Assembly: GCA_017885655.1 (NCBI GenBank)
Contig: JAFNFQ010000004.1
Span: forward strand, 89,373 to 153,372
DNA: 64,000 bases
DNA from: Methanobacteriota archaeon
GTDB taxonomy: Archaea; Thermoplasmatota; Thermoplasmata; RBG-16-68-12; JAFNFQ01
Direction of reading: 5' to 3'
In this document: piece after piece, positions 35,929-63,306 of the stretch
Numbering within the stretch: position 1 is the stretch's first letter
Layout of the letters: every line of letters begins with the position of its first letter
The notes under the pieces: generated by a model
Database searches by the model: none
What the model was told of the DNA's origin: nothing
The model's input: only the letters and a program-made list of their open reading frames with translations
Translations under genes and position numbers: made by a program

Positions 35929-38811
35929 TTGAAACGACAGAAGGAAAGGATCGAACGTCAAGTGCGGGAGGGCTTTGCGGCCCTGGCGGAGAACGACGTG
36001 GAGGCAGCGGAGCGCCACTTCAGAATAGCCGGTCACACTCTCGGCATCGCGCTCGCCTGCTATCACGGCCGGTTTTGGGAGCGAGCGACCAGCAAGGCCC
36101 TGGCGGCACTGGCCATGGCGGGACCTGGAACCGAGGACGAGGCGGTCGCCCTCAAGGTCCTCGCGATCGCTTCCAAGCAGCCGGGAGAGAAAGAGGTCAG
36201 AGGCGCCGCGCAGCAGCGGCGGGAGGCGCTCATCAAGCGCGCGGAGGAGCGGCTGGACGGGGTCGAATGGGGGCCAGTGCATGGCCTGATGCGCGAGCTG
36301 GCGAAGAAGCAGCCCGCCATCTACGGGGCTCTCGCCTCCGTCCGCATGGGGCGGAAAATGGTGAAAGCGGGTTTCCGGACAATAGTCGACTTCGTTCTTG
36401 CGGGAGATTACCACCGGGCGGCCTGTCTGGGCGACGACCTCACGCGCATAGAGGCGACGACCTGGGGGCTCGCGGCGGAGTTCTCCCTCTGCCCGGACTG
36501 CCTGGAGGAGTGGTTCGAGCCAGCTCCGGGGGAGCCGCCAAACGTGGCGCTGAACCGCTTGAGCGCGCTGACCGGGACGATACTCTTCGAGTTCACGTGG
36601 AAGAGTCCGGAGCACGCGCTGATCCTCGGGATCTCGGCGCTTCACTTCGCCGAGTTCAGGGCCCGCCACGGGGAGGACGTCGCGAGGCTCGTCGAGCGCG
36701 CGCAGGTCTACTACGATGCGGCCGCGGCACCGCAGTCGCTCGCGCCCGAGGAGGCGGGGCGCTGGACCGCCTGCGTCGAATATCACAGGGGGCGTGTACT
36801 CGAACTGGGGAAGAACGAGGCGGCCGCGCTGGCCCTCGTTGAGAAGGTCGCCTCGGGGTCTGCCGCCCCGTGGAACGAGAGGGCGCAGGAGGTGGCCGAT
36901 AGGATCCGCCGCCGCCAGGCGTCGGAGGCGAAAAGGGCGCGCGTCGCGACCCTGCGCGGGGAATGCGAGGCTGCGAGGAAGAAAAGCGATGGCGAGGTCG
37001 AGCTCGCCGCCCTGAAAGCCCTTTCATCGGAGATTGATCTGGAGCTCGGCCAGCTCGAGAGGCTCTCGCGCCTCCGCGACGAGGATCACGATCCAGGCTG
37101 GACGGACATAGCGATAAAGGCCGCGGCGAAAGGATCGCACGACGAGAACCTGTCAAGGCGTCTCGGGGAGGAGGCTGCCGTGCGGTGGTCGGAGGGGAAA
37201 GGACGCGAAGCATTGAACCTCTTCATTCTGGCCCGCCGCATCGCTCCGCTGTCGCTCGACGTGATGTCGGCGTACGCGGCAGTGCTCGCCTCGTTCGGCC
37301 GCAATGCCGAGGCGGCGAAGGCGTACGCGGCGATCGGCCACAGGGAGCCCATGCACTTCCTCGAGAGCGCGCGCTGCTTCATGGCGGCGGGCGAGGAGAG
37401 GCGCGCGGTCGCGGTGGTGCAGGCGCTGTTCGTCGCGTCGGACGCGGTCCGCCTGTGGGAGGATGGTCTGCGCCTTGTCGAGTCCCATACCACACCGCCG
37501 GCCCTGCGCCTCCTGGCCAGACTGCTGCTGGACCGGCAACCTGAGAACGAATTCGCCCGCACCGCCCTTGCCCGTGCAGAGGCGGAGGCGTACCGCGCGG
37601 CGGTCGAGGAGCGCGAGAGAGTACGTGCAGTTGCGCGCGTGGCCGCGAAGACGGGAGACTGGCGGAAGGTGAGGGATTCCCTGCAGAGCGTGCAGGAGAA
37701 TGTGAGGGACGGCGAACTCTGGAACCTGCTCGCCCGGGCTCATGAGGCCCTCGGTGAGGGGGAGGAAGCCCTGCGGTGCTACGAGGCGATGCCGCAGACG
37801 GCAGCCTCGATGGCGGGCCGCGCGCGCAGCCTCGTCCGCCTGAGGAGGTTCGAGGATGCCCGCGAGACTCTGGAGCATCTCCGTGACCGATTGGAGCCCG
37901 AGGAGGAGCCGGAGCTGGGGAGCGACCCTGATGTCAAGGGGCTGTGGGCCGAAGTGAAGGGCGACCTGCAGCTGGCGGCGCGGCTGTATGTCGATGAGGC
38001 GATGCTCCGCTCTCTGATCATGAAGGCGCGCGAGCGGGAGGATGCGCTGGCGGAGCTGGAGGCGCTCTCGGTCATCGCCGCGCGCGATGAAGCGTGCGTC
38101 GGCGAGCTCATGGACCGCGTGCGGGCCCTTGAGGGGCGCCTGCCTGTCCGCGCGAAGGCGCGCATCGTCCGAGATCGCATGCCCTCGCTCGTCCTGTGCG
38201 ACACGAACGTGCTGCTGTCGAGGGTGCTCGAGGGCGTCCCCCTGCCGGGCGATCTGAAAGCGCTCGGCAATCCGCGGGGTGTTGAGCGTTTCGAGACGCT
38301 CAGGTCGCAGAGGGGGAACGCGGTTCTCGCGGTCACGGATACCGTGGCGGGGGAGCTGAGGTCCCTGCTCAAGTACCAGATGGCGGTCCGGGAGGACGAG
38401 GAGGCGGAGAAGGCGCTCGAGGAGGTCATGCGGCGCGCGGAGCAGCTCGTGTCGGAGATGCGGGTGGAGAAGGTCGCCGGCCTCTCGCCGAGGCCGCCAC
38501 CGGAGTACTCGGAGCGCGTGAGGTCATTCTATAGGTCAATGGGCCCGCGCCTGCGTGCGATTACTCGGCGCAAGGTGAGCAGGCGGCCCGAGCGGTCGTC
38601 GGAGATCCTCGGCCGGCGGGGAGTGAGCAAGGGCAAGCCGGGGCGCGCGCCGATGCCGGAGGCGGTGGACCAACGGCTGCTCGCCGAGGCGGCGTCGCTC
38701 GTTGACGGGCCGCTGCCCGGGTTCGGCGGCGTGGGCATCCTGTCCGACGACGCTGACTTCCGGAGCTTCGCGCGGGAGATCGAGACGACATTCGGCGTGA
38801 GGATTCACTGA
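35929..38811 (+). CDS. Large alpha-helical (TPR-like) protein with a C-terminal PIN-domain nuclease
   Basis: Ala/Arg/Glu-rich helical repeats over roughly 750 aa, then a PIN core LVLCDTNVLL ... AVTDTV ... QRLLAEAA ... GILSDDADF. Many overlapping alternative-frame ORFs are by-products of high GC. Confidence 0.7.
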   Translation: MKRQKERIERQVREGFAALAENDVEAAERHFRIAGHTLGIALACYHGRFWERATSKALAALAMAGPGTEDEAVALKVLAIASKQPGEKEVRGAAQQRREALIKRAEERLDGVEWGPVHGLMRELAKKQPAIYGALASVRMGRKMVKAGFRTIVDFVLAGDYHRAACLGDDLTRIEATTWGLAAEFSLCPDCLEEWFEPAPGEPPNVALNRLSALTGTILFEFTWKSPEHALILGISALHFAEFRARHGEDVARLVERAQVYYDAAAAPQSLAPEEAGRWTACVEYHRGRVLELGKNEAAALALVEKVASGSAAPWNERAQEVADRIRRRQASEAKRARVATLRGECEAARKKSDGEVELAALKALSSEIDLELGQLERLSRLRDEDHDPGWTDIAIKAAAKGSHDENLSRRLGEEAAVRWSEGKGREALNLFILARRIAPLSLDVMSAYAAVLASFGRNAEAAKAYAAIGHREPMHFLESARCFMAAGEERRAVAVVQALFVASDAVRLWEDGLRLVESHTTPPALRLLARLLLDRQPENEFARTALARAEAEAYRAAVEERERVRAVARVAAKTGDWRKVRDSLQSVQENVRDGELWNLLARAHEALGEGEEALRCYEAMPQTAASMAGRARSLVRLRRFEDARETLEHLRDRLEPEEEPELGSDPDVKGLWAEVKGDLQLAARLYVDEAMLRSLIMKAREREDALAELEALSVIAARDEACVGELMDRVRALEGRLPVRAKARIVRDRMPSLVLCDTNVLLSRVLEGVPLPGDLKALGNPRGVERFETLRSQRGNAVLAVTDTVAGELRSLLKYQMAVREDEEAEKALEEVMRRAEQLVSEMRVEKVAGLSPRPPPEYSERVRSFYRSMGPRLRAITRRKVSRRPERSSEILGRRGVSKGKPGRAPMPEAVDQRLLAEAASLVDGPLPGFGGVGILSDDADFRSFAREIETTFGVRIH

Positions 38812-38943: not shown

Positions 38944-40209
38944 ATGGCCGAGGTCTGGGTCAGCCTGCTCGTCGGCGGGACTCTGCTCCTCATCGGATAT
39001 GGCGCCTCCCTGATTTTCGACAAGTTCCGAATCCCCGACTTCATCGTGCTCATCTTCCTGGGTGTCCTCCTGGCGCAGATACCTGTCGAGCCTTTCGGAC
39101 CAGGTCTCGTGCCCTCGCTCACCCCGATACTGCCGGTCTTCACGGCCCTGACCATAGCATTCATCATGTTCGAGGGGGGCCTCTCGCTGAACCTCAAGGG
39201 CTCGGGCAGGGGGATGCCGGGGGTCCTCGCTCACGTCGCGGTCTCGGTGTTCATCACGGTCGTCCTTATCTGGTTGATCGCGACGCGCCTCCTCGGCTTC
39301 GACGGCGTCACCGCGCTTGTTCTGGCGGGGGCGTTCTGCGGTCCGTCGGCCGCCGTCATCCTCAGCTTCGCGACGCGTCTCAAGCTCGGCAAGGCGGCGG
39401 AGAGGGCGGTCGTGCTCGACGCCGTGGTCACGAACGTCATCGCGGTGATCCTGGTATTCTTCGCGATAAGGTCGGCGAGCGCCGAGCCGGCGACTTTCCT
39501 CCATCAGTATGCGCTCGAGATAGCGCTCGCGACGATCGTGGCGATTGCGGCGGGGATTCCGTGGAGGATGGCGATCAAGCGCTCGCCTTCACGCAAGTTC
39601 ATGTACATCGCGACAGTCGCCTGGGCCCTCGTCATCTATGGCATCGCCGATGGGCTCATCAACGGGAACGGCGCCGTCGCCGCATTCGTCTTCGGCCTCG
39701 TCCTCGCATACCGCAAGCCCGAGGACGCTCCGGACCCGGAGGGGAAGGGCAGCCTCCAGGAGTTCCAGTCCGAGATCACCTTCGGCATGAGGACGTTCTT
39801 CTTCATCTACCTCGGTCTCGTGGTGACGGTGGACAGCGTGACCCCGGTGGCGCTCATTGGCGCTCTCCTCCTGACGCTGGTGTTCGTCGTGTCGAGGGTG
39901 CCGAGCTCGATCGCTCTGGGCAGGCTATCCGGGTTCAGCAAGAGGGAGACGAGGGTCCTCATCGCGTCGATGGCGCGCGGGATGACCGATGTGGTGCTCA
40001 TCCTCATCGCGATCGAGAGCGGAGTCGTACCAGCGTCCTCGGTTCCTCTGCTCGTCGGGCTGGTGACCGTGACTATCCTGGTTGCGGTGGCGGTGTGCGC
40101 GGGGCTGGTCGTCTGGGCGGAGAGGAGCCCCATGGAGGAACAGGCACGTGAGAACCCACCTATTCCACCTGACGCGGATGTCCCTCTGCAATTCGACCGT
40201 CCAGCGTAG
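38944..40209 (+). CDS. Monovalent cation:proton antiporter (CPA1/NhaP-like)
   Basis: Ten to twelve predicted TM helices. The overlapping 434-aa ORF 38847-40151 in another frame is RG-rich and rejected. Confidence 0.85.
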   Translation: MAEVWVSLLVGGTLLLIGYGASLIFDKFRIPDFIVLIFLGVLLAQIPVEPFGPGLVPSLTPILPVFTALTIAFIMFEGGLSLNLKGSGRGMPGVLAHVAVSVFITVVLIWLIATRLLGFDGVTALVLAGAFCGPSAAVILSFATRLKLGKAAERAVVLDAVVTNVIAVILVFFAIRSASAEPATFLHQYALEIALATIVAIAAGIPWRMAIKRSPSRKFMYIATVAWALVIYGIADGLINGNGAVAAFVFGLVLAYRKPEDAPDPEGKGSLQEFQSEITFGMRTFFFIYLGLVVTVDSVTPVALIGALLLTLVFVVSRVPSSIALGRLSGFSKRETRVLIASMARGMTDVVLILIAIESGVVPASSVPLLVGLVTVTILVAVAVCAGLVVWAERSPMEEQARENPPIPPDADVPLQFDRPA

Positions 40210-40233: not shown

Positions 40234-40704
40234 CTACTTCAGATTTATCCTGTAGAAGCTCCAGTCAGTCTTTTCCGCGTTGTTCTTCTCGTAGAATCTC
40301 TGGGCGGACTTGTTCCAGTCGAGGACGGTGAACTCGATTCTCCCGCAACCCTCTTTCTTGGCTCTTTCCACGCAGAAGTCGAACATGGCCTGACCTATGC
40401 CCTGTCTCCGGTACTCCTCAAGCACGAAGATGTCCTCAAGGTAAAGAGTTGGCAGGGCGCGGAAGCTGGAGTAGGTGAAATAGACGATGACGTAGGCAAC
40501 GTACTTGGAGTCAAGTCTGCCCAGGTATGCCTCGTATCTAGGGTTCTTCGAGAGCGCGTCTCGCCTCAGTCTTCTCTTGGCGGCTTTGTCCGGAGGTGCG
40601 AGGTTTTCGAACTTCGCGAGTCCCTCGATGAGAAGGAGGAGGTGATGGAAGTTGTCCCCCGTGACTCGCTCGATGATCAGTCCACTGTCAGCATGCTTGC
40701 TCAT
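40234..40704 (-). CDS. GNAT-family N-acetyltransferase
   Basis: Acetyl-CoA motif RRQGIGQAMFDFCVERAKKEG. TATA-like ATATTTACG about 30 nt upstream of the ATG (leaderless arrangement). Confidence 0.85.
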   Translation of the reverse strand: MSKHADSGLIIERVTGDNFHHLLLLIEGLAKFENLAPPDKAAKRRLRRDALSKNPRYEAYLGRLDSKYVAYVIVYFTYSSFRALPTLYLEDIFVLEEYRRQGIGQAMFDFCVERAKKEGCGRIEFTVLDWNKSAQRFYEKNNAEKTDWSFYRINLK

Positions 40705-40767
40705 GGCGGCGGTAAGATGAAGCGTCGGCGTAAATATCCTTCCGCGGAACGGTTTCGGAGCGGAATC
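40624..40767. repeat. Direct repeat copy 1 (about 142 bp): promoter plus first 29 codons of the GNAT gene
   Basis: Aligns by eye with 41576-41719 at high identity, including the ATATTTACG TATA-like box and the MSKHADSGL coding start. Confidence 0.7.
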
Positions 40768-40988
40768 GATAATCTGCGCGTTTGTATCCCCGATCAGACT
40801 GGACCCGCCATCACATCATCGGAGGGAGATCCACGAGAGATATCGATATCGGCAGAACTACCAGCAATCCGGTATCTAGCTCTCCGGCGAAGAGACTGGG
40901 CATCCGCTCTTTAAGATTCCTTCATTCCAATATTAGAGCACGCAGGAGTCATGGGTTCTTCACTCCACGATGAATCGCGCGAGCGCGG

Positions 40989-41513
40989 CTATGGCGTATC
41001 CCACGCCGCAATCTGCATTATCGTTGAATCGTCCACGAGCTCAAACCTCCAGTCATGGGAACCCGACATTCCGTAGACAAAGAAAGAATCGCCAGTGCTC
41101 AACCTCCCGTCGCTGTCCTCGTCGTGGACGATTGCCTTGACTGTCAGGCCGAAGCTGAATGGGGTGTTAAATCTCAGACTTTGATAATCCGGGAGTAGGG
41201 GACTGAAATCCGCGTACATGCGCATTCGTATGTGGGAGACTTCCCCAAAGCGTTCCGTCACGCATTTCGCCTTCCAGCTAGCCGTGAGGTTGTCCGAGAG
41301 TCCACCGATGTCGATTTCGGTGAAGTACATCGGAGCCCCATCTACCCACGGACCGCAATATTCGGGGGTATGGGCGGTCAGCGTGTACCAGACAATGACA
41401 GCTGTCACCAAGAGGACGGCAATTACGAAGGAGGCAACCGCGTACAGGAATCTGCGAGATTTCGATTTCCTCTCGTTTCCATTGGCATCCTTTCGCTCGG
41501 GCTGCGCCGTCAT
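40989..41513 (-). CDS. Membrane-anchored extracytoplasmic protein (174 aa), inserted between the two GNAT-promoter repeats
   Basis: N-terminal TM anchor (FLYAVASFVIAVLLVTAVIVWY), GGAG 6 nt upstream. ATGA overlap with the truncated GNAT leader ORF. Confidence 0.55.
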   Translation of the reverse strand: MTAQPERKDANGNERKSKSRRFLYAVASFVIAVLLVTAVIVWYTLTAHTPEYCGPWVDGAPMYFTEIDIGGLSDNLTASWKAKCVTERFGEVSHIRMRMYADFSPLLPDYQSLRFNTPFSFGLTVKAIVHDEDSDGRLSTGDSFFVYGMSGSHDWRFELVDDSTIMQIAAWDTP

Positions 41514-41656
41514 CCGTCGCTCCCTGCACCGAGAGCATGCTTATTACCCTTAAAGGTTCCTGGATTCGGGAGGCTCTCGACAAGAAGGAGGAATTCCTGG
41601 AAGTTGTCTCCTTTGACTCGCTCGATGGTCAGTCCACTGTCAGCATGCTTACTCAT
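41510..41656 (-). pseudogene. Truncated duplicate of the GNAT gene 5' end (29 conserved codons + 19 novel codons), acting as a leader ORF coupled to the 40989-41513 gene
   Basis: MSKHADSGLTIERVKGDNFQEFLLLVESL matches MSKHADSGLIIERVTGDNFHHLLLLIEGL of the full gene, then diverges and stops overlapping the next ATG. Confidence 0.6.
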
Positions 41657-41719
41657 GGCGGCGGCGAGATGAAACGTGGGCGTAAATATTCTTCCGCGGA
41701 AAGCCTTCAACAGGGAATC
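41576..41719. repeat. Direct repeat copy 2 of the GNAT promoter/5' segment
   Basis: See copy 1. Copy 2 ends where the Fic gene (41718-42656) ends. Confidence 0.7.
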
Positions 41720-42656
41720 AGCGGGCTTGCGTCCCCGGCTGGACCGTTTCCGCGTACCGCGCTAGTGCATGCTTGCTTGAATACCATGTGCGGCCGATCT
41801 TGACGGCCTCGAGCACTCCCTGCCGCGCGCGCAACGAGAGGTATTCCTGAGAATACGCGCTGCCCCGGGCAAGCTGTCTCAGGGGGACGAGAGCACGTTC
41901 GGGATCCACCGCGGACAGGAACACCGCCAGCCCCTCGTCAACAGCATGCAGTACGAAGCCCGAGAGCGGTCCGTACCGGCCCCGGTCCGCCTCATCGAGA
42001 CACTTGTAGTACCGCCGCCTGTCCTCCACGCGGAGGACGACAGGCGCGTATCCTGCGCTGATGAGCACCAGGTTGGCGGCCAGCCGCGCGGTCCTCCCGT
42101 TCCCGTCGAGGAACGGATGGATCGATGCGAGGCGGTGATGCAGGCAGATGCTGCGGAGGACCGGCTCGCGGATGGCGGGAAGTCCCTTGAACAGCTGGTC
42201 GAGTCGCCGGACGATCTCGGATGGGGGCGGCGGGAGGTGCGCCGAACCGCCGATCCGGACCTGCTGCCGTCTGTACTCCCCTGGAGACTCCAGCGTCCCC
42301 TTCGTGACCATTTCGTGGAGCTTCTTGAGGGGGGCATGGTCGAACCGCAGGCCAGGACGGCCACTCTCCCATATCCAGTCGAAGGCCTCCGCGTTGTTCG
42401 TGGCCTCGAGGTGTTCGCGGACGCTCTTCCCCCCGATCGTGATCCCCTGCTCGATGATGAGGCGGGTCTCCTTGAGGCTGAGCGTGTTCCCCTCTATGGC
42501 GTTGCTGTTGTAGGTGTGGTAGAGGCGCAGCTGCTGCCGCAATCGTTCCAGGACGTCCCGGGGAAGGGGCCTGCGGGACCGCAGCTCCTTGAGATTCGAC
42601 TGGACCCGCCGCCATGTCACAGGAGGAAGGTCGGAGACGGATATCGGTATCGGCAT
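41718..42656 (-). CDS. Fic/Doc-family protein
   Basis: Canonical Fic motif HPFLDGNGRTARL. Confidence 0.85.
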   Translation of the reverse strand: MPIPISVSDLPPVTWRRVQSNLKELRSRRPLPRDVLERLRQQLRLYHTYNSNAIEGNTLSLKETRLIIEQGITIGGKSVREHLEATNNAEAFDWIWESGRPGLRFDHAPLKKLHEMVTKGTLESPGEYRRQQVRIGGSAHLPPPPSEIVRRLDQLFKGLPAIREPVLRSICLHHRLASIHPFLDGNGRTARLAANLVLISAGYAPVVLRVEDRRRYYKCLDEADRGRYGPLSGFVLHAVDEGLAVFLSAVDPERALVPLRQLARGSAYSQEYLSLRARQGVLEAVKIGRTWYSSKHALARYAETVQPGTQAR

Positions 42657-42800
42657 GTTTCCGTGTTATCCGATAGCCTTGCGGTTATATATCGGTATCG
42701 GCAAGATTGACAGTAATCCGATATCTGTCTCTCCATGAAGGTGATTCGAGACTTGACGCCCCTTGCACAAGCCCGGAAGATTCAGAGCACCCAGATGCCC

Positions 42801-43493
42801 TCATCCGGCGGTGAACACGTCCCATCTCGAGACTTTCGCGCCCGCCGACCTCAACTCCTCGATGAGGGCGGTGGCGTCCTCGTCCGAGAGCATGAGGACT
42901 GATGGGGAGACGACAGTCGCCTCGTACCTGTCCTTGAGCCCCTCGTACCTGTAGATCGTCCGGCGCCCTCCGACCTCCTTCGTCGAGACGGACCCGTGGA
43001 CCTTACGCGACACCTGCACCTTCTTGCCGGGCGGGAGGCCTGTGAGGTCATAGGAGACTAGGACCATCGGCCTCAACGCGAGGTGGTCGGGCGTGAGGAC
43101 GAACTTGCCCTGGAGCACGACTCCCTCCCGGAACACGTTCCTCAGGAAGCTCGGGTCGAGGTCCCTCAGGTTCGTGGGGATCGCGTTGATGTCCCTGTGG
43201 GGCCTGAGCGCTGTCACCATGCGCGCGATCTGCCGGTTGAGCGTCTGGGGAACCCTGCGGTCGACTATCACGAGGAGGTCGATGTCGGACCTGCGGTCGA
43301 ATTCGCCGCGGGCGAGGGAGCCGAATAGCACTACCCCGCCAGCTCGGACGATTCCCTGAAGGCCGTCGAGGAACCTCTCGATGAGCCGCCGGTCGTCGTC
43401 GGGGAGCTCAGTGAAGCTCGGCTTCGATGTCCCCGAGGATCTCCTTCGCTCTCTTGGCCGACTTTCCATCTCCTTTTCCTCCGTAGTGTTCAT
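42801..43493 (-). CDS. Nucleotidyltransferase-domain protein (MNT-like N-terminus + about 110-aa C-terminal domain)
   Basis: LFGSLARGEFDRRSDIDLLV = GS...D.D minimal nucleotidyltransferase signature. Confidence 0.8.
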   Translation of the reverse strand: MNTTEEKEMESRPRERRRSSGTSKPSFTELPDDDRRLIERFLDGLQGIVRAGGVVLFGSLARGEFDRRSDIDLLVIVDRRVPQTLNRQIARMVTALRPHRDINAIPTNLRDLDPSFLRNVFREGVVLQGKFVLTPDHLALRPMVLVSYDLTGLPPGKKVQVSRKVHGSVSTKEVGGRRTIYRYEGLKDRYEATVVSPSVLMLSDEDATALIEELRSAGAKVSRWDVFTAG

Positions 43494-43571
43494 TCTGTAA
43501 CAGGTTAATGAAAGAGGCAGTTCTTGGCACTTTCTGTTAATCCGTCACAGACTGCACCTAGGGCGGAATCG

Positions 43572-43620
43572 TCATCGGAACCTGTATCCCTCCGGGAAGC
43601 ATCTCAGCAGCTTCCCCGGC
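43572..43620. repeat. Copy a of a repeated gene-3' segment (X-type end, shortest copy)
   Basis: Shares TCA.CGGAACCTGTATC..TCCGGGA.GCAT.T.AGCAGCTTCCCC with copy b. The minus-strand reading ends ...GKLLRCFPEGYRFR* versus ...GKLLKCIPDRYRFQ* in copy b. Confidence 0.55.
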
Positions 43621-43741
43621 AGCCTGCCGTCAAGCTCCTCGATGTCGCGGTCCACGGACCCAATCACGCGGATGCCATACCTCTTGAGGATCTCCCGCTT
43701 CGTCTTCAGTCATCTCACGAAGCGTGCACGATCGAGTTCAT

Positions 43742-44125
43742 TCAGATTAACAGAGCGGCTTGCTCGACCGTCCCGCCGCAGAGCTCGACCGATTCGCTGT
43801 CACTCTGCGGGCCCAATACCCCGCCTGTCGAATCCGCGGACACTTGGTGCGTCTGACAGGAGTCGACGAGCCATGTTATATCGAACGTGTACTGGATGGA
43901 CCCCAAGGGCGAGAGAGTCCCGCTGTACTTCAACTGACCGTCCAGAAACACCCGGTATTCCACATCATTCACCAGATGCGTGCTCGACACGGTCACAACG
44001 ATCTTGCCGCTCTTCGAGATCATGAAGAACCCGATTAGTGCGACAACCACCACGATAACGACCACGATGATAACACCAGTGTGCTTCTTGGGCTGTGCTT
44101 GTTGCGTCGGCTGAGGCTGCGCCAT
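43742..44125 (-). CDS. Small membrane-anchored extracytoplasmic protein (127 aa)
   Basis: N-terminal MAQPQPTQQAQPKKHTGVIIVVVIVVVVALIGFFMI TM anchor. Lies between repeat copies a and b. Confidence 0.45.
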   Translation of the reverse strand: MAQPQPTQQAQPKKHTGVIIVVVIVVVVALIGFFMISKSGKIVVTVSSTHLVNDVEYRVFLDGQLKYSGTLSPLGSIQYTFDITWLVDSCQTHQVSADSTGGVLGPQSDSESVELCGGTVEQAALLI

Positions 44126-44259
44126 CTATCTACGCTCCTTGCGCTGAAGATGTCTCGACAAGCTTTAAATGTTTCCAGACACCACACGTCACCGGGTATT
44201 CGGGGTCGCGGATCCTGCGCAATCGATGCAGGCGATCCTTGGACGCCCCTCGCCCGGAT

Positions 44260-44427
44260 TCACTGGAACCTGTATCTATCCGGGATGCATTTGAGCAGCT
44301 TCCCCTCCGAGCCCTCGTGGACGCACGTCTCCTTCAGGTCGCATCCGGGGCAGAACCGTGCGCGGATCTCGCTCTCCTCCAGCCCCAGGAGGCCCGCCTG
44401 GTCGAACAGTTCGTGGAGGAGCTTCAG
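44260..44427. repeat. Copy b of the repeated gene-3' segment (about 165 bp)
   Basis: 129 bp (44299-44427) align with 49156-49284 of gene 49088-49492 at roughly 90% identity by eye. Minus-strand reading LKLLHELFDQAGLLGLEESEIRARFCPGCDLKETCVHEGSEGKLL matches LKLLHDMFDQAGLLGLDESEIRVRFCPECDLRATCVHEGSEGRL. In frame after the 44497-44973 gene stop. Confidence 0.7.
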
Positions 44428-44496
44428 GTTCCATCCCCCGGGATCAGGCGGTCCCCGGCGGGGTCGGTGCTCCTCTCTCGGTCATCGTCCGGCAGC

Positions 44497-44973
44497 TCAC
44501 CCTTCTCCGAGAAACCTCAGGTCCTCGAGGTCCTGCTTCCTCCGTAGCTTCTTGAGGGTCTCCCTGTGGTCATCGAGCGATATCACGGGGATCCTGACGC
44601 CCTTGTATGAGAACGTCTGTCTTCTCTTCCAGAGGTCGTCGAAAGACCCCAGGACGGGACTGGTGATGATGTCCACCTCCCTGTCGTTCGTGAACGTGGT
44701 GTGCCCCATCCCCCGTATGTCCTTCACGACGTCCGTGTCGGGGACGAGCCCCAGGCTCTCCAGCGCCTTCACGGTTGCGGACACGTTCTCCGGCCCCGGG
44801 TGGATCATGATGTCGACGTCGACCGTCGTGCGGGGGACGCCGTGGAGGACGCCGGCGAGGCCTCCCGCCAGGAGGTACCTGACCTTATTCCTATTCAGCG
44901 TCCTCATTATCACCTGAAGCTCTAGCAATCCTCGCCTCCCTTCTGAACCCCTCAACCTCCTCAGCGAGCGCAA
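44497..44973 (-). CDS. Nucleotidyltransferase-fold protein (AbiEii/DUF-type)
   Basis: RYLLAGGLAGVLHGVPRTTVDVDIMI: hG[GS] plus D.D pattern of the Pol-beta-like nucleotidyltransferase fold. Confidence 0.55.
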   Translation of the reverse strand: MRSLRRLRGSEGRRGLLELQVIMRTLNRNKVRYLLAGGLAGVLHGVPRTTVDVDIMIHPGPENVSATVKALESLGLVPDTDVVKDIRGMGHTTFTNDREVDIITSPVLGSFDDLWKRRQTFSYKGVRIPVISLDDHRETLKKLRRKQDLEDLRFLGEG

Positions 44974-45852
44974 GTCGCTCCTGAGGTGTCAGGCTCAGGA
45001 ACCACCTGCCGAGCCTCTCCCGCGCCGGGTCTTTCTCTGGCATCGGGCCTCAATCCCTCTCGTTGGTATATCTCCCTTTCGCGGCGGCCGGTCGATATGT
45101 TCGGCAGATTGCCGTCCGGACGGAAGCCGTCGCTCCGGGTTGAACCCCTGTCAGCCCCGCACTACGAGACTTTGTCTTCCAGGACCATCGCGACGATTCC
45201 GTCCCAGCATCGGCGACCAGCCCCTGGCGGGCCTTCTCCAACCACCCGCCATCGATGAGGCTGATGGACCTGGTTTTGTCCATCAGGAAGCCTCCATTAG
45301 GAGAGAATCAACAGAATCGATCAGCCGTATTGAGGCCTCGGCGACCCAGAGGATCCCGAGGCGTGTAATCGATGTGGTTGTGGGTTCCGCGATTCCGGAA
45401 CCGTGTAATTCGAAATCAAATGGGTTCATGGGTATTTAACGACATTGGACTCGGTGATCAAGGTCGTTCGTTGGTGTAGCTTGCCGATAGGTTGCTCGGC
45501 GGGATTCCGGTGATCACGAGTCGAATCATCGGGGCATGGACGTTGCGGGCGCGACATTCCCCAGCGTCTGAATCTGCTTCTGGGACGCAGCCTCAACGAG
45601 GCAATGTTCCAGGAGATGCCCGCTACGGATGAACACAGGATATTTAAGGTGGGATGAGATGTCTTTTCGAGAATCCGGGCAGAAGGTAAAAGTAGGCGCC
45701 CGGGCCATAGACGACGCATCTGGAACTGCATACGGTTTGGGGGCTAGGGGTAAGAGCGGGAACCGGACGATGGACGCCGTCCAAGAAGGACAGAGAGGCA
45801 AAGGATACGAGCTCTTGGGAGCGAATGGTTTAACGGGACGTGCTGCGGGGGT

Positions 45853-46320
45853 TTGCCTTTGAAGAAAGTAAAGCTGACGATACGAGAGAAGATCCAGGAC
45901 GCTGGTTTCAGGCTCTGCCTCATGAAGGAGGCGCAGAAGCAGTTCATCACGCGCTTCTTCGCCGAGAACCTCCAGGACAAGAAGACCGTCGAGGTCCTGG
46001 TGGGCGGCCGCCGCAAGGACGTCGATCGATACATCCAGACCGTGAAGGGAATGCGCACGGGGAATCCCAAGGGCTTCGATGTGGAAACACAGGACTATGA
46101 CGGGAACATAATGGACATCAGGGATTTCGCCGGCTATCTGACGGCGGAACAGCTGGTGAGAGGCGTGGGGGGAATGACGGGGCTTGTCTCGAGGATCGAC
46201 ACGCTCGACAAGACGCTCGTCGTTCGCCTTTCCGGGCTTGAGACCACATTGAAGGGAATCGGCCCTGACATCGCAAGAGCCATACTGGAGGGGTTCGAGC
46301 GCCTCGAGAAGCGGGGTTAG
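45853..46320 (+). CDS. Hypothetical protein (155 aa; TTG start, first ATG at Met24)
   Basis: Single long ORF in an otherwise ORF-poor stretch. The N-terminal region is loosely acylphosphatase-like (FR...A...G..N..D..VEVLV.G); not confidently assigned. Confidence 0.35.
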   Translation: MPLKKVKLTIREKIQDAGFRLCLMKEAQKQFITRFFAENLQDKKTVEVLVGGRRKDVDRYIQTVKGMRTGNPKGFDVETQDYDGNIMDIRDFAGYLTAEQLVRGVGGMTGLVSRIDTLDKTLVVRLSGLETTLKGIGPDIARAILEGFERLEKRG

Positions 46321-46562
46321 ACCCCGGTCAGAGGGCGGCGCGTCTCAGGATATCATCCAGAGATCGTGGTGGCGCGAGACCAAGCCAGCCGGCCGATTGC
46401 CAGTTTCCCCCATGGTTCTCATGGACCGTCCATGGCAGATTTTCTTCATCCTGAGTTGGAGATTGGGCCGGATTCGCCGTCCCTGCATTCGCTTTGGATT
46501 GGCACTCATCTTCCTAATATCCTTCCTGACTCGAGGGCTCTGACAGATCACTGCGCGATGCC

Positions 46563-46700
46563 CTAGGCACGTGACTTCGCACCGCCTCTGAGAATGACGG
46601 TCGCAACTCCATCCAGGCACAGCGGCGACAGCTTCCCCTCCGAGCCCTCATGGATGCACGTCTCTTTCAGGTCGCATCCGGGGCAGAACTGCACATGGAG
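46563..46700. repeat. Copy c of the repeated gene-3' segment (about 140 bp, Y-type end)
   Basis: Minus-strand reading VQFCPGCDLKETCIHEGSEGKLSPLCLDGVATVILRGGAKSRA* versus RFCPECDLRATCVHEGSEGRLSPLCLDGVATAILRANFESSI* of the full gene. Similarity continues about 25 bp past the stop codon. Confidence 0.7.
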
Positions 46701-46751
46701 CCCGACCGATTTAAATTGACGCGGTGTGCCGATGCTCGGAGACGACCGCGA

Positions 46752-47921
46752 CTAATCGAGGATTATATCGAGATAGGGCCGATAGGCGAAAACTCGATTG
46801 CGCCTGTTCCCCGTCTGTTCATTCAAAAGCGCGAGCCCCTCCAGTTCGACCGCGAGTTCGTTCGCGCTCGGGAACGACAGCCCTGTGACCCTCTGCATAT
46901 CGTTCACCGAGACCATCGGGTGCTGGTACATGAACTCGATGAGAATGAGTGCGCCTCCCGCCCTTCGTCCCATTGCATTCTGGATCAACCGCCTATGCTC
47001 CTCACGCAGCTGGATGATTCTCTTCGCTGTCTCGGTCGCCTGCCTGGACACCTCGTCGACGCCTTTCAGGAAGAACCTCAGCCAGCCCTCCCAGTCCCCC
47101 TCGTCCCTGACCGCCTGCAGCGTGTCGTAGTACGAAGACCTGTTCTGGCGGAAGTAATGTGAAAGGTAGAGCAGGGGCCGCTCGAGATAGCCCTCCGCCG
47201 TCAAGAGGAAGGTGATGAGCAGACGCCCCATCCTCCCGTTGCCGTCCAAGAACGGATGGATCGTCTCGAACTGGCTGTGCGCGAGCCCCACCTTGACCAG
47301 CGGCGGCAAGGATCTCTCTGTCAGGAGAAAGCGCTCCAGATCGTCGAGGGCCTTTCTCATCTCGGGTACAGCAGGCGGGACGAAGGCTGCATCTTCAATC
47401 CCCCTCTCCGAGGGGCCGATCCAGTTCTGCACCGACCTCAGCTCGCCAGGACTATGGCTGCTGCCCCTGCCCCTGCTGAGCAGGCGAGCATGTATCTCCT
47501 GAACGAGCGCGACAGACAGCTCTCTCCCCCTCGCGATCTGACCCAGACCGTGGTTCATCGCGTCGATGTAGTTGGACACATCGACGACATCGCGAGGGTG
47601 ACCGCGCAGGCGCGCGCCCGCCTCGTACTCGAGGAGGTCGATCAGCGATGATTGGGTGCCCTCGATCTGGCTGGACAGTACGGCCTCTTTCCTGATATAC
47701 ATGAAGACGAAGAGGTCCGGGTTCGGCAGGGTCTCCGTCGCCCCGCTGAGCCTCCCAAGGTTCCTGTCCGCTTGCGAGAGGATGCTCAGCATCGAGCTGT
47801 CGAAGTCGATCGGAGGATTGGGCGGGAGCGGTTTGGGGACATATGTGCGATAGCCTTCCGGTTGCATCGCATATTGACCTGCACGCGCGGTCGTTTTTAC
47901 CATATTTAAGCCAGCCTTCAC
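46752..47921 (-). CDS. Fic-family protein with C-terminal winged-helix region
   Basis: Fic motif HPFLDGNGRMGRLL; 389 aa with the C-terminal wHTH typical of long Fic proteins. Confidence 0.85.
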   Translation of the reverse strand: MKAGLNMVKTTARAGQYAMQPEGYRTYVPKPLPPNPPIDFDSSMLSILSQADRNLGRLSGATETLPNPDLFVFMYIRKEAVLSSQIEGTQSSLIDLLEYEAGARLRGHPRDVVDVSNYIDAMNHGLGQIARGRELSVALVQEIHARLLSRGRGSSHSPGELRSVQNWIGPSERGIEDAAFVPPAVPEMRKALDDLERFLLTERSLPPLVKVGLAHSQFETIHPFLDGNGRMGRLLITFLLTAEGYLERPLLYLSHYFRQNRSSYYDTLQAVRDEGDWEGWLRFFLKGVDEVSRQATETAKRIIQLREEHRRLIQNAMGRRAGGALILIEFMYQHPMVSVNDMQRVTGLSFPSANELAVELEGLALLNEQTGNRRNRVFAYRPYLDIILD

Positions 47922-48119
47922 AATTCAGAAGCTTTAACAGTTAATTAATTTTCTATTGACATTATTGAATAACGAGCTGCATCTATAAGTACATTCCTTC
48001 CAAAGCTAGCTGCTGCGAAAATGAAAGACCTTGAACGATTCTTTCGAAATCGGGCAAGGGAATCGCAGGCGCGGGATTCCTCAGCCTGAATCGCGCGGGT
48101 CGTTCCGGATCTTGATGTC

Positions 48120-48199
48120 TCACTCCGACTTCGCTCTCAGGATGACTGTGGCGATCCCGTCCAGGCACAGCGGCGACAGCTGCCCCTCCGAGCCCTCGC
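48120..48199. repeat. Copy d of the repeated gene-3' segment (shortest Y-type copy, about 80 bp)
   Basis: GTCCAGGCACAGCGGCGACAGCTGCCCCTCCGAGCCCTCG is shared with copies c and e. Minus-strand reading ...GSEGQLSPLCLDGIATVILRAKSE*. Confidence 0.6.
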
Positions 48200-48345
48200 G
48201 GAGGCGTAATTCTCCTGCGGCACTCCGGGCGGAACCGCACACGGGATTTACTCTGACGGAATTCTCCTATCCTAGGCCGATTGCGTTATGAAAGTACACA
48301 GAATCATTATGGCCGCGAATGCGTTGCCATTCGCGTGGATGAGAC

Positions 48346-48861
48346 ATGACTGCAGAGCGCACGATGCTGTTCATGGACGGATCGAATCTTTTCCACTCCA
48401 CCAAGGACTTCGACCCTGGATTGAAAATCGATCTCGTGAAACTTCGAGATTTCTTGGCGAAAGACAGGCTCCTGATACGCGCATACTACTATGGCTCGAT
48501 ACCGATTGGGAATCCGGAGAGAATCGCGAAACAGACCGCCTTTCATCACTTGCTCGAGTACAGCGGTTTCAAGACGGTGATTTTGCCGCTGCGCAGGCGA
48601 GGGGCGGAGTACGTGGAGAAAGGTGTCGACGTCTCCCTTGTTACCGACATGTTGGCGCTTGGGTTCGATCGAGCTTACGAGTGCGGCATTCTCGTGGCTG
48701 GCGATGCCGACTATGTCAGGGCGATTCAAGAGGTAGAACGCAAGGGCATCAGGATTCACGTCGCATTCTACGATCTCCCCTTATGTGCGGGCGACCTGAG
48801 ACGGGCTGCACATTCGTTCGTCTCGCTGGATAAGCATCTTGAGGAATTCAGGAAGTCGTGA
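48346..48861 (+). CDS. NYN-domain (LabA-like) protein, paralog 1
   Basis: MLFMDGSNLF ... YYYGS ... EKGVDVSLVTDML ... LVAGDADYVRAIQEV, matching the NYN/LabA core. The likely true start is the ATG at 48364. Confidence 0.8.
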   Translation: MTAERTMLFMDGSNLFHSTKDFDPGLKIDLVKLRDFLAKDRLLIRAYYYGSIPIGNPERIAKQTAFHHLLEYSGFKTVILPLRRRGAEYVEKGVDVSLVTDMLALGFDRAYECGILVAGDADYVRAIQEVERKGIRIHVAFYDLPLCAGDLRRAAHSFVSLDKHLEEFRKS

Positions 48862-48879
48862 AATCAAAAATGCATTGAG

Positions 48880-48975
48880 GAAGCTTTTTTGCCAGACGAC
48901 CGAGCCAAATGATGTGCGCTTGTCGTTATGGTTTTTGGCGGTCGTCTGGAGAGTTATTTTCGCATTCTTAATTCA
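48880..48975. repeat. Conserved hairpin element (copy 1) just downstream of NYN paralog 1
   Basis: TTTTTT-GCCAGACGACCG-(loop with CTTGTCGT)-CGGTCGTCTGG-AGAGTTATTTTC. Resembles 60420-60515 in the arms, the loop motif and the T-rich flanks. Confidence 0.55.
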
Positions 48976-49087
48976 CGTGCTTGCTTAAAACTCTTTCGCT
49001 TGGAGTCAGCCTCTTGATAGCCTGATCTGGCAAGCGTCCGTGTGAGCGATTGATGGATATTTCCAAGAAGGTTCCACGCGCAAAAGC

Positions 49088-49492
49088 CTAGATGGACGAT
49101 TCGAAGTTTGCGCGGAGTATCGCGGTCGCAACACCGTCCAGGCACAGCGGCGACAGCCTCCCCTCCGAGCCCTCGTGGACGCACGTCGCCCTCAGGTCGC
49201 ATTCGGGGCAGAACCGCACGCGGATCTCGCTCTCATCCAGCCCCAGGAGGCCCGCCTGGTCGAACATGTCGTGGAGGAGCTTCAGGTACTTGCCCTCGGC
49301 TATGCGCGGCACGTCGTACTTCGCCGCCTTCAGTCCCCCGCGCGCGGTCCAGTACTCGTAGAGGCGCCGCGCGCCCTTGGAGCTGTTGCACAAGGGGCCG
49401 ACCCGGAAGGCATTCCTCCCGCCACTAGTCAATAAATGGCGATTGCATTCCGTGCAGCTTCGCCACGAATTCTTCAGTCTTCTTAAAGTCAC
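49088..49492 (-). CDS. Hypothetical small Cys-pair protein (134 aa if GTG at 49492); the full-length gene whose 3' end recurs in copies a-d
   Basis: SCTECNRH ... FCPECDLRATCVHEG Cys pairs. 3' region 49088-49284 is the repeat unit. The GTG start overlaps the upstream RNase-III-like gene by 68 nt, so the true start may be an internal TTG/GTG/ATG. Confidence 0.5.
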   Translation of the reverse strand: MTLRRLKNSWRSCTECNRHLLTSGGRNAFRVGPLCNSSKGARRLYEYWTARGGLKAAKYDVPRIAEGKYLKLLHDMFDQAGLLGLDESEIRVRFCPECDLRATCVHEGSEGRLSPLCLDGVATAILRANFESSI

Positions 49493-49937
49493 GATCAGTA
49501 TCTAAGTAAACGGCTCCTATGAGCGCCTCTAGCGTCTCGGCCGGAATTCTCGGTTGCACATCGAGGCTCTTATCTCTCTCCGACCCTCCCAGCCGAATGA
49601 GACCTCCGACTCCTTTTTCCAGTGCGAGTTTTGCTAACGTCGGTTTCTCTTCCATCTTTCTCCTTTCCACGGTAATTTTGTCCCCTGTCTCGAAGCCGGA
49701 GTGATATAGGATATCGGTTAGTGCCGCTTTGAGCAAAGCATCGCCCAAGGTCGCGAGCGCTGTCTGATCCTCACATTTCGGTTGCTGCAACGCCCGATCC
49801 TCGACAAACTTCTGACGGGTCAATGCACGGATGAGAATATCTGTGTTTCCGAATCGATGGCCGAGAATTCCTTCCTCTTCGTTCGCTTTGATGATCTTGT
49901 CCATTGGGTCTTCGAGTTTCAAGCAATCACCTCGCAC
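49425..49937 (-). CDS. RNase III-domain-like protein (170 aa, single catalytic-domain type)
   Basis: LATLGDALLKAALTDILY and ETLEALIGAVYLD resemble the RNase III signature (ERLEFLGDA ... EALIGAIYLD). Confidence 0.55.
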   Translation of the reverse strand: MRGDCLKLEDPMDKIIKANEEEGILGHRFGNTDILIRALTRQKFVEDRALQQPKCEDQTALATLGDALLKAALTDILYHSGFETGDKITVERRKMEEKPTLAKLALEKGVGGLIRLGGSERDKSLDVQPRIPAETLEALIGAVYLDTDRDFKKTEEFVAKLHGMQSPFID

Positions 49938-50150
49938 ATATGTCTGTTCATGCTAATCCTGTCGTGTTCCATTGCTATTCCCCTCGCCGACATGCAAATG
50001 CATGGGGTCCTATTTCAAAGATGGCTTGCGCATGATGGTGACATCCCGCCCACCGCTAGATCGTCCTGCTGAGTTAAGTGTCAATTTGAGAATGTCAATC
50101 GCGACCTTTATCAAACTCTATATACGCGACACTCACATTCGGTTAATCGA

Positions 50151-50633
50151 TTGCGCATGGCAGGAGTTACGTGCCTGACCTTGTCGGGGGACAACTACTG
50201 GGCGGTCGTCAACAGCGTCTGGTCTCTTCTGTATGAGGGGCTTTCAGTCCCTAGCCACCTCATTCTCATAACTAACGGCCGCCACAAAGATGTCGCGAAG
50301 AGGGCTTCCGATTCGTTGCAGACACTGCTTTCCTTCTATGGGATGACCAGCGTCCCCGAAATCATCGTCGTCCCCGAATATGACCTGCGCCAGGTACACG
50401 ACAAGCTGTTTGAAATCATGCAGAAGGCCAAGTCGGAGGGAGAAGTCGCTCTCAATATCACTCCGGCTAGAAAGTCGCTTGCCACAGTCGCCATGGTCGC
50501 CGCATGGGAAACTAAGGTGAATAGAATCCATTACGTTTACCTCAGAAGTCTCAAGGACGCCGATTGTCCCTATCCCCTCATAGCAAGGGATCTCCATGAA
50601 TTGCTCGACTTGAAGGAGCTCCGCCCGAAATGA
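50151..50633 (+). CDS. CARF-like Rossmann-fold sensor domain protein (degenerate ligand-site motif)
   Basis: VTCLTLSGD ... HLILITNG ... VALNITPARKSLATVAMVAAWE ... IHYVYL parallels the Csa3-like protein in this window (VHIATVGE ... LHINITGGTNIMASAALIAG ... VYYI), but with NITPA in place of NITGG. TATA CTATATAC at 50118-50125; likely ATG at 50157. Confidence 0.45.
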   Translation: MRMAGVTCLTLSGDNYWAVVNSVWSLLYEGLSVPSHLILITNGRHKDVAKRASDSLQTLLSFYGMTSVPEIIVVPEYDLRQVHDKLFEIMQKAKSEGEVALNITPARKSLATVAMVAAWETKVNRIHYVYLRSLKDADCPYPLIARDLHELLDLKELRPK

Positions 50634-57901: not shown

Positions 57902-57946
57902 CTAGATTGTCAGGTATTGCAGACACCTATAGCGGTTCTCTTTTAT

Positions 57947-57967
57947 AGTAAAATGCTGCATTTTACT
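57947..57967. promoter_or_regulatory. Perfect 10-bp inverted repeat (AGTAAAATGC-T-GCATTTTACT) in the pVip/csa3 divergent promoter; candidate Csa3 operator
   Basis: Lies between the TTTTATAG TATA-like box (57941-57948) and the csa3-like ATG (57973), i.e. over the expected leaderless transcription start. Confidence 0.4.
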
Positions 57968-57972
57968 GACGG

Positions 57973-59255: not shown

Positions 59256-59423
59256 CGGAGTGACTGAGGCAAAATCCGCGATTTCTGCATGATCATCTCC
59301 TTCCCCCTGATGCGGATACGCCCGGATAGGACTTGACTTCATCGCAAGAAATACCGTCGAACTGTCTCCAACCACGTTGATGTTCCTCCATTTCCACACA
59401 TCAATGTAGGAGGTGTGATTCGA

Positions 59424-59585
59424 TTGAAGCCTATCAACGTAGACGACAAGAACGTGTGGTTCGAGCGCGGGGTGAGGTGCCTGGAGAGACACGAGTACGG
59501 TCAGGCGGTGGACCGCTTCAAGAGGGCGCGCGTGCCGCTCCCATGGGAGGTGCTGAGGAGAAGGAGCGGGAAGATGAAGTACTAA
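59424..59585 (+). CDS. Possible small ORF (53 aa, TTG start) upstream of NYN paralog 2
   Basis: GGAGGTG 9 nt upstream of the TTG. Product KPINVDDKNVWFERGVRCLERHEYGQAVDRFKRARVPLPWEVLRRRSGKMKY. Speculative. Confidence 0.2.
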   Translation: MKPINVDDKNVWFERGVRCLERHEYGQAVDRFKRARVPLPWEVLRRRSGKMKY

Positions 59586-63294: not shown

Positions 63295-63306
63295 GGGGGA
63301 AATATC

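Follow-up and report, generated by a model that had tools for sequence, protein, structure and literature searches.

A locus in an uncultured Thermoplasmata archaeon raises the question of how a gene missing from the four closest lineages came to lie between two copies of the promoter and 5' end of a resident gene, and from which signals it might be read. We analysed the locus within a stretch of 64 kb, called the window hereafter, in which the inserted gene (MEM) lies between a GNAT acetyltransferase gene and a Fic gene. Based on the comparisons described below, we suggest that the locus probably goes back to a single duplicative insertion in this lineage, of which it is the scar after reciprocal decay, and that MEM may be read from the duplicate promoter. 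The features of the locus are listed in Table 1.

Direct repeat and extent of the duplicated unit

The sequence-only reading had described a direct repeat of about 142 bp, carrying the GNAT promoter and the first 29 codons, on both sides of a gene for a 174-aa protein. When we aligned the two copies, the repeat was found to be real and to extend over 155 nt with 83% identity (40613-40767 and 41565-41719), and the ORF at 40989-41513 does lie between them. The ungapped core of 137 nt (40613-40749 and 41565-41701) contains 19 mismatches and shows 86% identity (BLAST E 1.3e-40), so that the two collinear copies in direct orientation are similar far above chance. Both contain the TATA-like box of GNAT (GGATATTTACGCC in copy A and GAATATTTACGCC in copy B), the ATG and about 31-34 GNAT codons. 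A second repeat pair was found at 40792-40885 and 42593-42734, in collinear blocks at offsets of 1801 and 1849, indicating that the duplicated unit also took in the Fic gene and its upstream region.

The remnants of Fic and of its upstream region in copy A are consistent with this extent. In the Fic remnant the start codon is changed from ATG to CTG and about 855 nt (codons 22-306) are deleted, and the Fic N-terminus MPIPISVSDLPP is recognisable in the remnant ORF LPISISLVDLPP. The TGCCGATAYCGATAT-containing element of the upstream region occurs once in copy A and twice in copy B, and one 48-nt repeat of this region, which is present in tandem in copy B (42641-42675 and 42689-42723), has been lost from copy A. 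Since copy A holds these remnants, the true duplicated unit is about 1.17 kb, comprising the Fic upstream region, Fic, the GNAT promoter and the GNAT 5' end, and the 137-nt repeat is its best-preserved part. An insertion in or next to GNAT, in which only about 142 bp was duplicated and the duplicate promoter and stub drive and couple MEM, draws on a repeat, a stub ORF, an ATGA overlap and a single-copy state in relatives that are all real, but it is refuted on extent, because copy A also contains pieces of both ends of Fic and the element upstream of Fic, and we regard it as improbable.

Table 1. Coordinates of the features of the locus in the window
Feature	Coordinates	Strand	Description
GNAT acetyltransferase gene, intact, 156 aa	40234..40704	-	PF00583, E 6e-19; joined to repeat copy A
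Repeat copy A, proximal part	40613..40767	-	GNAT promoter region (GGATATTTACGCC at -35..-24) and GNAT codons 1-31
Fic pseudogene remnant, copy A	40774..40855	-	last 6 codons (40774-40791) fused directly to codons 1-21 (40792-40855)
Fic upstream region (U), copy A	40840..40885	-	46 nt, 78% identity to 42689-42734, offset 1849
Unique cassette	40886..41552	-	downstream spacer of ~100 nt, 174-aa gene, upstream spacer of ~40 nt
Inserted gene MEM, 174 aa	40989..41513	-	between the repeat copies; N-terminal membrane anchor and Ig-like beta-sandwich (predicted)
Stub ORF, 48 codons	41510..41656	-	GNAT codons 1 to ~31-34 (copy B), running on into cassette sequence
Candidate own promoter of MEM	41540..41556	-	CCAGGAACCTTTAAGGG; TTTAAGGG box at -41..-34 from ATG
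Repeat copy B, proximal part	41565..41719	-	duplicate GNAT promoter (GAATATTTACGCC) and GNAT codons 1-31
Fic gene, intact, 312 aa	41718..42656	-	PF02661, E 1e-19; part of repeat copy B
Fic upstream region (U), copy B	42657..42734	-	95% identical to L012

The redundancy has been resolved in both copies: the downstream Fic copy lacks codons 22-306 and the start codon, and the upstream GNAT copy consists of no more than a 5' stub. After the event, one gene per duplicate appears to have been lost, namely Fic in copy A and the 3' part of GNAT in copy B. The intact GNAT gene scores 68.8 bits against PF00583 (cut-off 20.7), has orthologs of 71-93% identity in many metagenomes, and converges on a Na+/H+ exchanger gene (38944-40209) with a gap of 24 nt that is equal to the gap in relatives. 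The intact Fic gene, with which copy B is contiguous through a 61-nt spacer as in relatives, scores 71.3 bits against PF02661 (cut-off 24), shows the HxFx(D/E)GNGRxxR motif as HPFLDGNGRTAR, and has 90-93% nucleotide identity to relatives. We regard these two genes as the functional copies. PADLOC matched Fic to SoFic/PDC-S04 and gave no match for GNAT or the inserted gene, and an Rfam search of 38-45 kb returned no family at an E of 0.1 or below.

Related lineages, independent assemblies and the inserted gene

The sequence-only reading had proposed that related genomes would show a single-copy ancestral state, and this was borne out in four related lineages (L006/L007, L010, L012-L014 and L015-L017), where Fic, 61 nt, GNAT and the Na+/H+ exchanger gene follow each other without an inserted gene. 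L006, L010, L012 and L015 align to the window at 42803/43486-41565 and at 40757-38900 with an overlap of 145 nt. Since this 145-nt segment of each relative aligns to both copies in the window, the relatives hold one copy and lack the insert, and the cassette has no counterpart in any of these four. The outer flanks on both sides of the locus are syntenic with L012.

The sequence is metagenome-derived, and a chimeric or mis-joined contig at the repeat was considered, although nothing specific favours it. The duplicated form is present in four independent assemblies from different samples (two Logan runs and two JGI metagenomes), all of which match the window at 100% identity wherever they overlap it; L001 spans the entire locus, and L002-L004 extend over copy A and the inserted gene into a part of copy B. 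The copies, at 86% identity, are also too different to collapse or mis-join, and the probability of an assembly artefact is negligible. Direct repeats around a gene absent from relatives would also be produced by a mobile element (transposon, MITE or integrative element) inserting with a target-site duplication. However, the repeats exceed 1.1 kb and have diverged by 14-30%, unlike target duplications, which are short and exact, and neither inverted repeats at the cassette ends, nor a transposase or integrase, nor a nearby tRNA gene was found. The sole cassette gene encodes a beta-sandwich membrane protein without a recombinase fold, and we consider an insertion of this kind very improbable.

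The MEM protein has no Pfam match, while one close homolog with 57% identity and 30 remote representatives were found. AF2 gave a pLDDT of 50 from a 2-sequence alignment, and the model from a 24-sequence alignment (pLDDT 89.6) was used instead, which shows a helix at 14-46 followed by strands. The predicted helix fits a membrane anchor, in agreement with the sequence-only reading, which had taken the protein to be membrane-anchored. Because of the 57% homolog, the 30 remote relatives and the confident fold, we conclude that MEM is a real gene. It belongs to a rare family without a Pfam match that combines a membrane anchor with an Ig-like domain, sometimes in tandem, and the family is a minor annotation lead. 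Structure matches of the model included archaellins and FlaF/FlaG (PDB 7txi, 9eq7, 4p94 and 5tug), and a distant family member (P0144) has an archaellin/pilin N-terminal domain (TIGR02537, E 9e-13); a profile search of PDB sequences gave only a weak Pilin_N match (E 0.1). Like archaeal type IV pilin-like proteins, archaellins and FlaF/FlaG, MEM would start with a hydrophobic helix and continue into an Ig-like beta-sandwich (FlaF is described in PMC4425475), but unlike the archaellin/pilin family it has no match to the class III signal peptide (TIGR02537 / Pilin_N) in Pfam or NCBIfam.

MEM is absent from 185,579 GTDB species representatives, and the JGI metagenomes yielded one further MEM contig only, which is of the same lineage as L018. 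In L018/L092 a full GNAT gene precedes the MEM homolog at a distance of 138 nt. The spacers around this homolog and those around MEM have no detectable homology, the alignment scores being within the shuffle range, and nothing in the window matches the L092 tail. Two genes that follow GNAT, one of 161 aa in L015 and one of 240 aa in L098, were tested as MEM homologs and are not homologous, and an ORF downstream of GNAT in L099 is unrelated to MEM.

Proposed origin of the locus

In the promoter and 5' end, copies A and B agree with each other in seven columns where all three relatives compared have a different state. Ten of the 19 differences between A and B are derived in B and three in A, copy A keeping the state of the relatives in most of the 19, and five differences match alleles segregating among the relatives. 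The seven shared columns and the mostly B-derived differences fit a duplication within the lineage followed by decay of the stub, and the five differences that match relatives' alleles would be as expected from recombination between haplotypes.

The ancestral order, which is still found in relatives, would have been a nucleotidyltransferase gene, Fic, the 61-nt spacer with the GNAT promoter, GNAT, and the convergent Na+/H+ exchanger gene. We propose that a cassette of about 0.66 kb encoding the membrane-anchored Ig-like protein entered at GNAT codon 31-34 and was accompanied by a duplicate of the ~1.17 kb before this site (the upstream region of Fic, Fic itself, the GNAT promoter and the GNAT 5' end), which would have restored an intact GNAT gene downstream of the cassette. 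Since an arrangement of repeat, insert and repeat is the product of a single homologous crossover, we infer such a crossover of circular or incoming DNA that carried MEM beside homologous sequence, for which Campbell-type integration and homology-facilitated illegitimate recombination (HFIR) are candidate routes. A donor or intermediate arrangement was not found among the 185,579 GTDB species representatives or in the JGI metagenomes. In copy A, what remains of Fic and its upstream region is 22-30% diverged vs 14% for the promoter/GNAT repeat (p=0.035), and this greater divergence could mean that there were two events or that an already-decayed copy was imported.

A different history would start from an older GNAT-MEM linkage, at which the arrangement in L018/L092, a full GNAT gene followed after 138 nt by the MEM homolog, hints. 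Here the left half (Fic, GNAT, MEM) would derive from an L018-like order with MEM after a full GNAT gene, and unequal or illegitimate recombination between lineages that had diverged would have attached a second Fic-GNAT-exchanger haplotype downstream of it. The stub would then have arisen through an internal deletion of GNAT codons ~34 to 156 and part of the spacer, and the Fic gene of the right half would also have been deleted. Several observations agree with such a history: both MEM genes have the SD-like motifs that downstream cistrons would be expected to carry, the window is a mosaic whose Fic side is closest to L012/L015 and whose GNAT/exchanger side is closest to L006, some differences between A and B match alleles of different relatives, and the Fic remnants of copy A are unusually diverged. 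It needs more events, however, and A and B have in common the seven derived positions absent from all relatives, the MEM spacers in the window and in L018/L092 are without detectable homology, and MEM is missing from all four closest lineages. We consider this history unlikely, and prefer the single duplicative insertion.

HFIR and single-crossover integration are known from naturally transformable bacteria and have been put forward to explain orphan gene arrays in T6SS/Rhs loci (PMC5361080; PMC3240628). As in such Campbell-type or HFIR cases, the new DNA lies beside or is flanked by repeated homologous sequence together with displaced "orphan" fragments of a resident gene, and the locus is in a variable toxin/defence-type region. 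Unlike those cases, the event here is read from its end product alone in an uncultured archaeon, the joint is without clear microhomology, the repeats are now 14-30% diverged, and no donor was found; HFIR also usually deletes recipient sequence, whereas here a 1.2-kb duplicate has been left.

Segmental duplication followed by reciprocal gene loss is a general pattern of genome evolution. The present locus resembles it in that a two-gene unit (Fic and the GNAT 5' end) was doubled, with Fic intact in B and GNAT in A, but differs in that the upstream copy never had a complete GNAT gene as far as the data show, and in that a foreign gene sits exactly at the joint. The locus is a matter of ordinary genome evolution, a rearrangement scar in a variable toxin-antitoxin island. 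It provides a clean, datable example of a toxin-antitoxin/defence-type island gaining a gene, in which resident sequence was duplicated and one copy of each gene was then lost.

Candidate expression signals of the inserted gene

The sequence-only reading had taken an ORF of 48 codons upstream of MEM to be a leader that couples its translation. The ORF is present, although gene callers give it as 48 aa or 66 aa, and its TGA at 41512-41510 overlaps the MEM ATG at 41513-41511 (ATGA, read as "tcat" at 41510-41513 on the + strand). The supposed leader is better described as a truncated GNAT pseudogene stub. Both GAATATTTACGCC and the ATG are intact in copy B, the distance from box to ATG is as in GNAT, and at the position of the box GGATATTT is conserved in relatives. 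The stub ATG follows this TATA-like box at about 27-35 nt, a distance that implies a leaderless or near-leaderless start. An SD-like GGGAG is found at -13..-9 of MEM. From the Fic stop to the GNAT start (41718 to 40704), the - strand contains no run of four or more T, although this is a weak terminator test, since the signals that end transcription in archaea are ill defined.

In archaeal operons, a cistron that follows a leaderless first cistron can be translated by stop/start overlap (ATGA coupling). The stub and MEM resemble such operons in the overlap of the stub stop with the next ATG, in the leaderless start implied by the TATA-like box, and in the SD-like GGGAG before the second cistron. 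They differ in that a pseudogene fragment takes the place of a conserved gene as first cistron and in that there is an alternative promoter-like box. Capture of the duplicate GNAT promoter by MEM is plausible on these signals, and we infer, with about an even chance of being right, that MEM is a downstream cistron read from this promoter and/or by read-through from Fic. Translation of the stub ORF would begin at the leaderless start, and that of MEM would follow by stop/start coupling aided by GGGAG. If the duplicate promoter does drive MEM, the locus would illustrate one route by which acquired genes gain expression signals in archaea.

The copy-B promoter and first 20 codons are diverged by 10% vs 26% for the other remnants (Fisher p=0.004). 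Selection on the promoter and stub would explain why this 105-nt patch differs from the other remnants, but gene conversion could equally account for its conservation. It is possible, although we hold it only tentatively, that MEM owes its expression to the spare GNAT promoter and the leaderless stub ORF and that selection has kept both. If true, this would be a natural archaeal case of a horizontally acquired gene expressed via recombination that duplicated a resident promoter, and of a gene fragment turned into a coupling leader.

The relative conservation of the copy-B promoter and start, together with the lack of a T-run terminator, also agrees with the improbable insertion model in which 142 bp alone was duplicated, but the alternative TATA-like box in the 51-nt spacer argues against it. 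This rival box, AACCTTTAAGGG at -43..-34 of MEM, is the candidate own box of the gene and also counts against promoter capture. It lies 41 nt upstream of MEM, straddles the junction between the GNAT stub and the cassette, and may replace the duplicate promoter or add to it. Averaged upstream of 51 crude ORF starts, the AT content gave no clear TATA peak, so that the promoter arguments rest on individual motifs. The motif CCTTTAWR occurs three times in the 64 kb, in each case with an ORF of at least 90 aa beginning 18-43 nt further downstream, and boxes similar to the candidate MEM promoter are found upstream of the ORFs at 10397 and 60570.

Extent of the duplicated unit

When we aligned the two copies, the segment at 40613-40767, attached to intact GNAT (copy A), was 83% identical over 155 nt to that at 41565-41719, contiguous with intact Fic (copy B; repeat finder), and local alignment gave an ungapped core of 137 nt with 19 mismatches (40613-40749 and 41565-41701; BLAST E 1.3e-40), confirming the direct repeat of the GNAT promoter and 5' codons proposed in the sequence-only reading. 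The repeat includes the GNAT ATG, about 31 GNAT codons and an AT-rich TATA-like box at -35 to -24 from the ATG (GGATATTTACGCC in copy A, GAATATTTACGCC in copy B). The GNAT fragment of copy B (the stub) opens a 48-codon ORF at 41656-41510 whose TGA does overlap the ATG of the inserted gene (MEM) as ATGA. The size proposed earlier, about 142 bp, proved too small, since pieces of Fic and its upstream region are also duplicated, and a second repeat pair was found (40792-40874 with 42593-42675, and 40840-40885 with 42689-42734).

Genes of the locus and the pieces of copy A, the latter in minus-strand order
Feature	Position	Strand	Description
GNAT acetyltransferase	40234-40704	-	156 aa, PF00583
MEM	40989-41513	-	174 aa, no Pfam match
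Fic	41718-42656	-	312 aa, PF02661
Nucleotidyltransferase	42801-43493	-	
Na+/H+ exchanger	38944-40209	+	convergent with GNAT
Copy A, piece 1		-	Fic upstream element, single copy, core TGCCGATAYCGATAT
Copy A, piece 2	start codon 40855-40853	-	Fic codons 1-21, ATG changed to CTG
Copy A, piece 3	40791-40774	-	last six Fic codons, fused directly to codons 1-21
Copy A, piece 4		-	61-nt Fic-GNAT spacer with 7-nt insertion, then GNAT

GNAT, MEM, Fic and the nucleotidyltransferase of this uncultured Thermoplasmata archaeon all lie on one strand, and its GNAT is 86% identical to that of the closest GTDB species representative, MAG OBJ1_062018_150_24. Judged from its pieces, copy A is a complete second copy of the Fic upstream region, Fic, the GNAT promoter and the GNAT 5' end, from which one 48-nt tandem repeat and some 855 nt of Fic have been deleted since the duplication. 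The original unit measures about 1.17 kb (42734 to 41565), and about 0.66 kb of unique DNA (40886-41552), with MEM as its only gene, separates the copies. Each duplicated gene stayed intact in one copy only. The 48-nt tandem repeat lies immediately upstream of the Fic start and overlaps it (42641-42723, also 40840-40874); its core, with palindromic arms ATATCGG..CCGATAT, occurs three times in the window against 0.19 expected. Since the repeat with this core is conserved in the single-copy relatives L006, L012 and L015, it may be a Fic operator.

Single-copy relatives and timing of the event

GNAT orthologs at 71-93% identity were common in metagenomes, and in four distinct lineages (L006/L007/L008, L010/L011, L012-L014 and L015-L017) a gene-free gap of 61 nt separates Fic (312 aa) from GNAT downstream. 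Their DNA matches the window twice, on the Fic side down to 41565 (41553 in L015; weak similarity between the copies may reach codon 34) and from 40757 (40767 in L015) onward. Because 145 nt of the relative's sequence fall in both alignments, these relatives are single-copy and do not carry 807 nt of unique sequence, as had been expected of an ancestral state lacking MEM. L012 matches both outer flanks, the nucleotidyltransferase on one side and the exchanger with a 950-aa protein on the other. An assembly artefact is ruled out because the window's own lineage was assembled independently four times, and every one of these assemblies shows 100% identity to the window across the part that it spans.

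Seven columns of the 137-nt core are common to both copies and differ from L006, L012 and L015. Ten of the 19 differences between the copies are derived in B and three in A, while five are polymorphic among relatives and one is derived in both copies. The shared and mostly B-derived changes would fit a duplication within the window's lineage with later decay of the stub. The copies diverge by 14% in the promoter and GNAT 5' end, 22% in the upstream element and 30% in the Fic 5' remnant, beside a fourfold-site divergence of 16-36% between the window and relatives; the event is therefore not recent, its age being roughly that of the splits between the lineages sampled. The copies have decayed unevenly: mismatches affect 11 of 105 positions in the promoter and codons 1-20, and 31 of 121 in the other remnants (Fisher p=0.004). 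From the one lineage sampled, this suggests that the promoter and start of copy B were either constrained or kept alike by a gene-conversion patch.

In L018 and L092, the MEM homolog follows a full-length GNAT (73% identical) at a distance of 138 nt, and thus the linkage of GNAT and MEM may predate the duplication. The stub may then have formed by an internal deletion in GNAT. Homology was not detectable between the non-coding flanks of MEM in the window and those in L018/L092. GNAT neighbours vary in almost every lineage (Fic, a 1515-aa surface protein, RHH/PIN or ParE modules), and the window itself is mosaic, its Fic side being nearest L012/L015 and its GNAT/exchanger side nearest L006. Judging from these patterns, recombination between lineages has evidently been frequent at this boundary. 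In L015 (8472-11500), two unrelated genes of 161 and 621 aa occupy the place of the Na+/H+ exchanger beyond GNAT, with a 44-nt exchanger remnant kept at 8656-8699 (window 40096-40139), another rearrangement at the same boundary.

The MEM protein and its expression

The one close homolog of MEM shares 57% identity with it and comes from L018 and from L092, which is 98% identical to L018. A complete HMMER search against 1.84 billion proteins gave 30 remote representatives, none with a relevant Pfam match and some with two to four tandem domain copies. The AlphaFold model of MEM (24-sequence alignment, pLDDT 89.6) shows a long N-terminal helix at 14-46 followed by a beta-sandwich, and archaellum filaments and FlaF were its best PDB matches in Foldseek (E about 8e-4, TM 0.35-0.40). 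A true archaellin/pilin N-terminal domain occurs in the distant relative P0144 but not in MEM itself. We read MEM as a putative membrane-anchored, outward-facing Ig-like protein. The domain family, which includes P0123 and P0124 and has no Pfam model, may be worth describing as a new family of extracellular domains. The GC3 of MEM is 0.67, against 0.75-0.86 in its neighbours.

We consider it roughly an even chance that the duplicate GNAT promoter in copy B drives MEM. Copy B has kept the TATA-like box and the ATG as far apart as they are in GNAT, implying a leaderless start; no run of four or more T occurs from the Fic stop to the GNAT start; the stub stop overlaps the MEM start, with GGGAG at -13 to -9 of the MEM ATG (GGTGG at -10 to -6 in the L018 homolog); and the copy-B promoter patch is comparatively well conserved. 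Against it, a rival box, AACCTTTAAGGG, lies at -43 to -34 of the MEM ATG, and 19 extra open codons with an ATGA overlap could plausibly arise by chance. Similar boxes lie upstream of ORFs at 10397 and 60570, and CCTTTAWR occurs just three times in the 64 kb, always 18-43 nt upstream of an ORF.

Mechanism and the surrounding island

We infer that the repeat-insert-repeat structure, with the insert exactly at the joint, arose by a single homologous crossover with a circular or incoming molecule carrying the insert beside homologous DNA, or by homology-facilitated illegitimate recombination, a process that has been proposed to explain displaced orphan genes in bacterial toxin loci (PMC5361080; PMC3240628). 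Transposon-type insertion is excluded because the repeats are long and diverged, the cassette ends have no inverted repeats, and a recombinase gene and a nearby tRNA gene are absent. With its ancestral state now documented, the locus amounts to an ordinary rearrangement scar within a variable toxin-antitoxin/defence-type island.

The neighbourhood at 41718-47921 (L012 1-8000) looks like such an island, with the MNT-like nucleotidyltransferase, Fic with SoFic/PDC-S04 matches and a second SoFic-like Fic_N+Fic gene at 46752-47921 (E 7e-115). At the point that corresponds to window positions 43551 to 43573, L012 has an additional PIN+RHH pair (about 750 nt), and it carries AbiEi/AbiEii farther along. 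Another repeat, in three partial copies 85-87% identical (43572-43617, 44260-44371 and 46629-46704), encodes on the minus strand the tail of a small zinc-ribbon-like ORF (ending RFCPGCDLKETCVHEGSEGKLLRCFPEGYRFR before the stop), which suggests paralogous small genes or more duplication scars. Base composition is strongly heterogeneous: a 960-aa ORF without a Pfam match (35929-38811) sits within DNA of about 68% GC, and the last 16 kb (48000-64000) is at about 52%, around a window mean of 58%.
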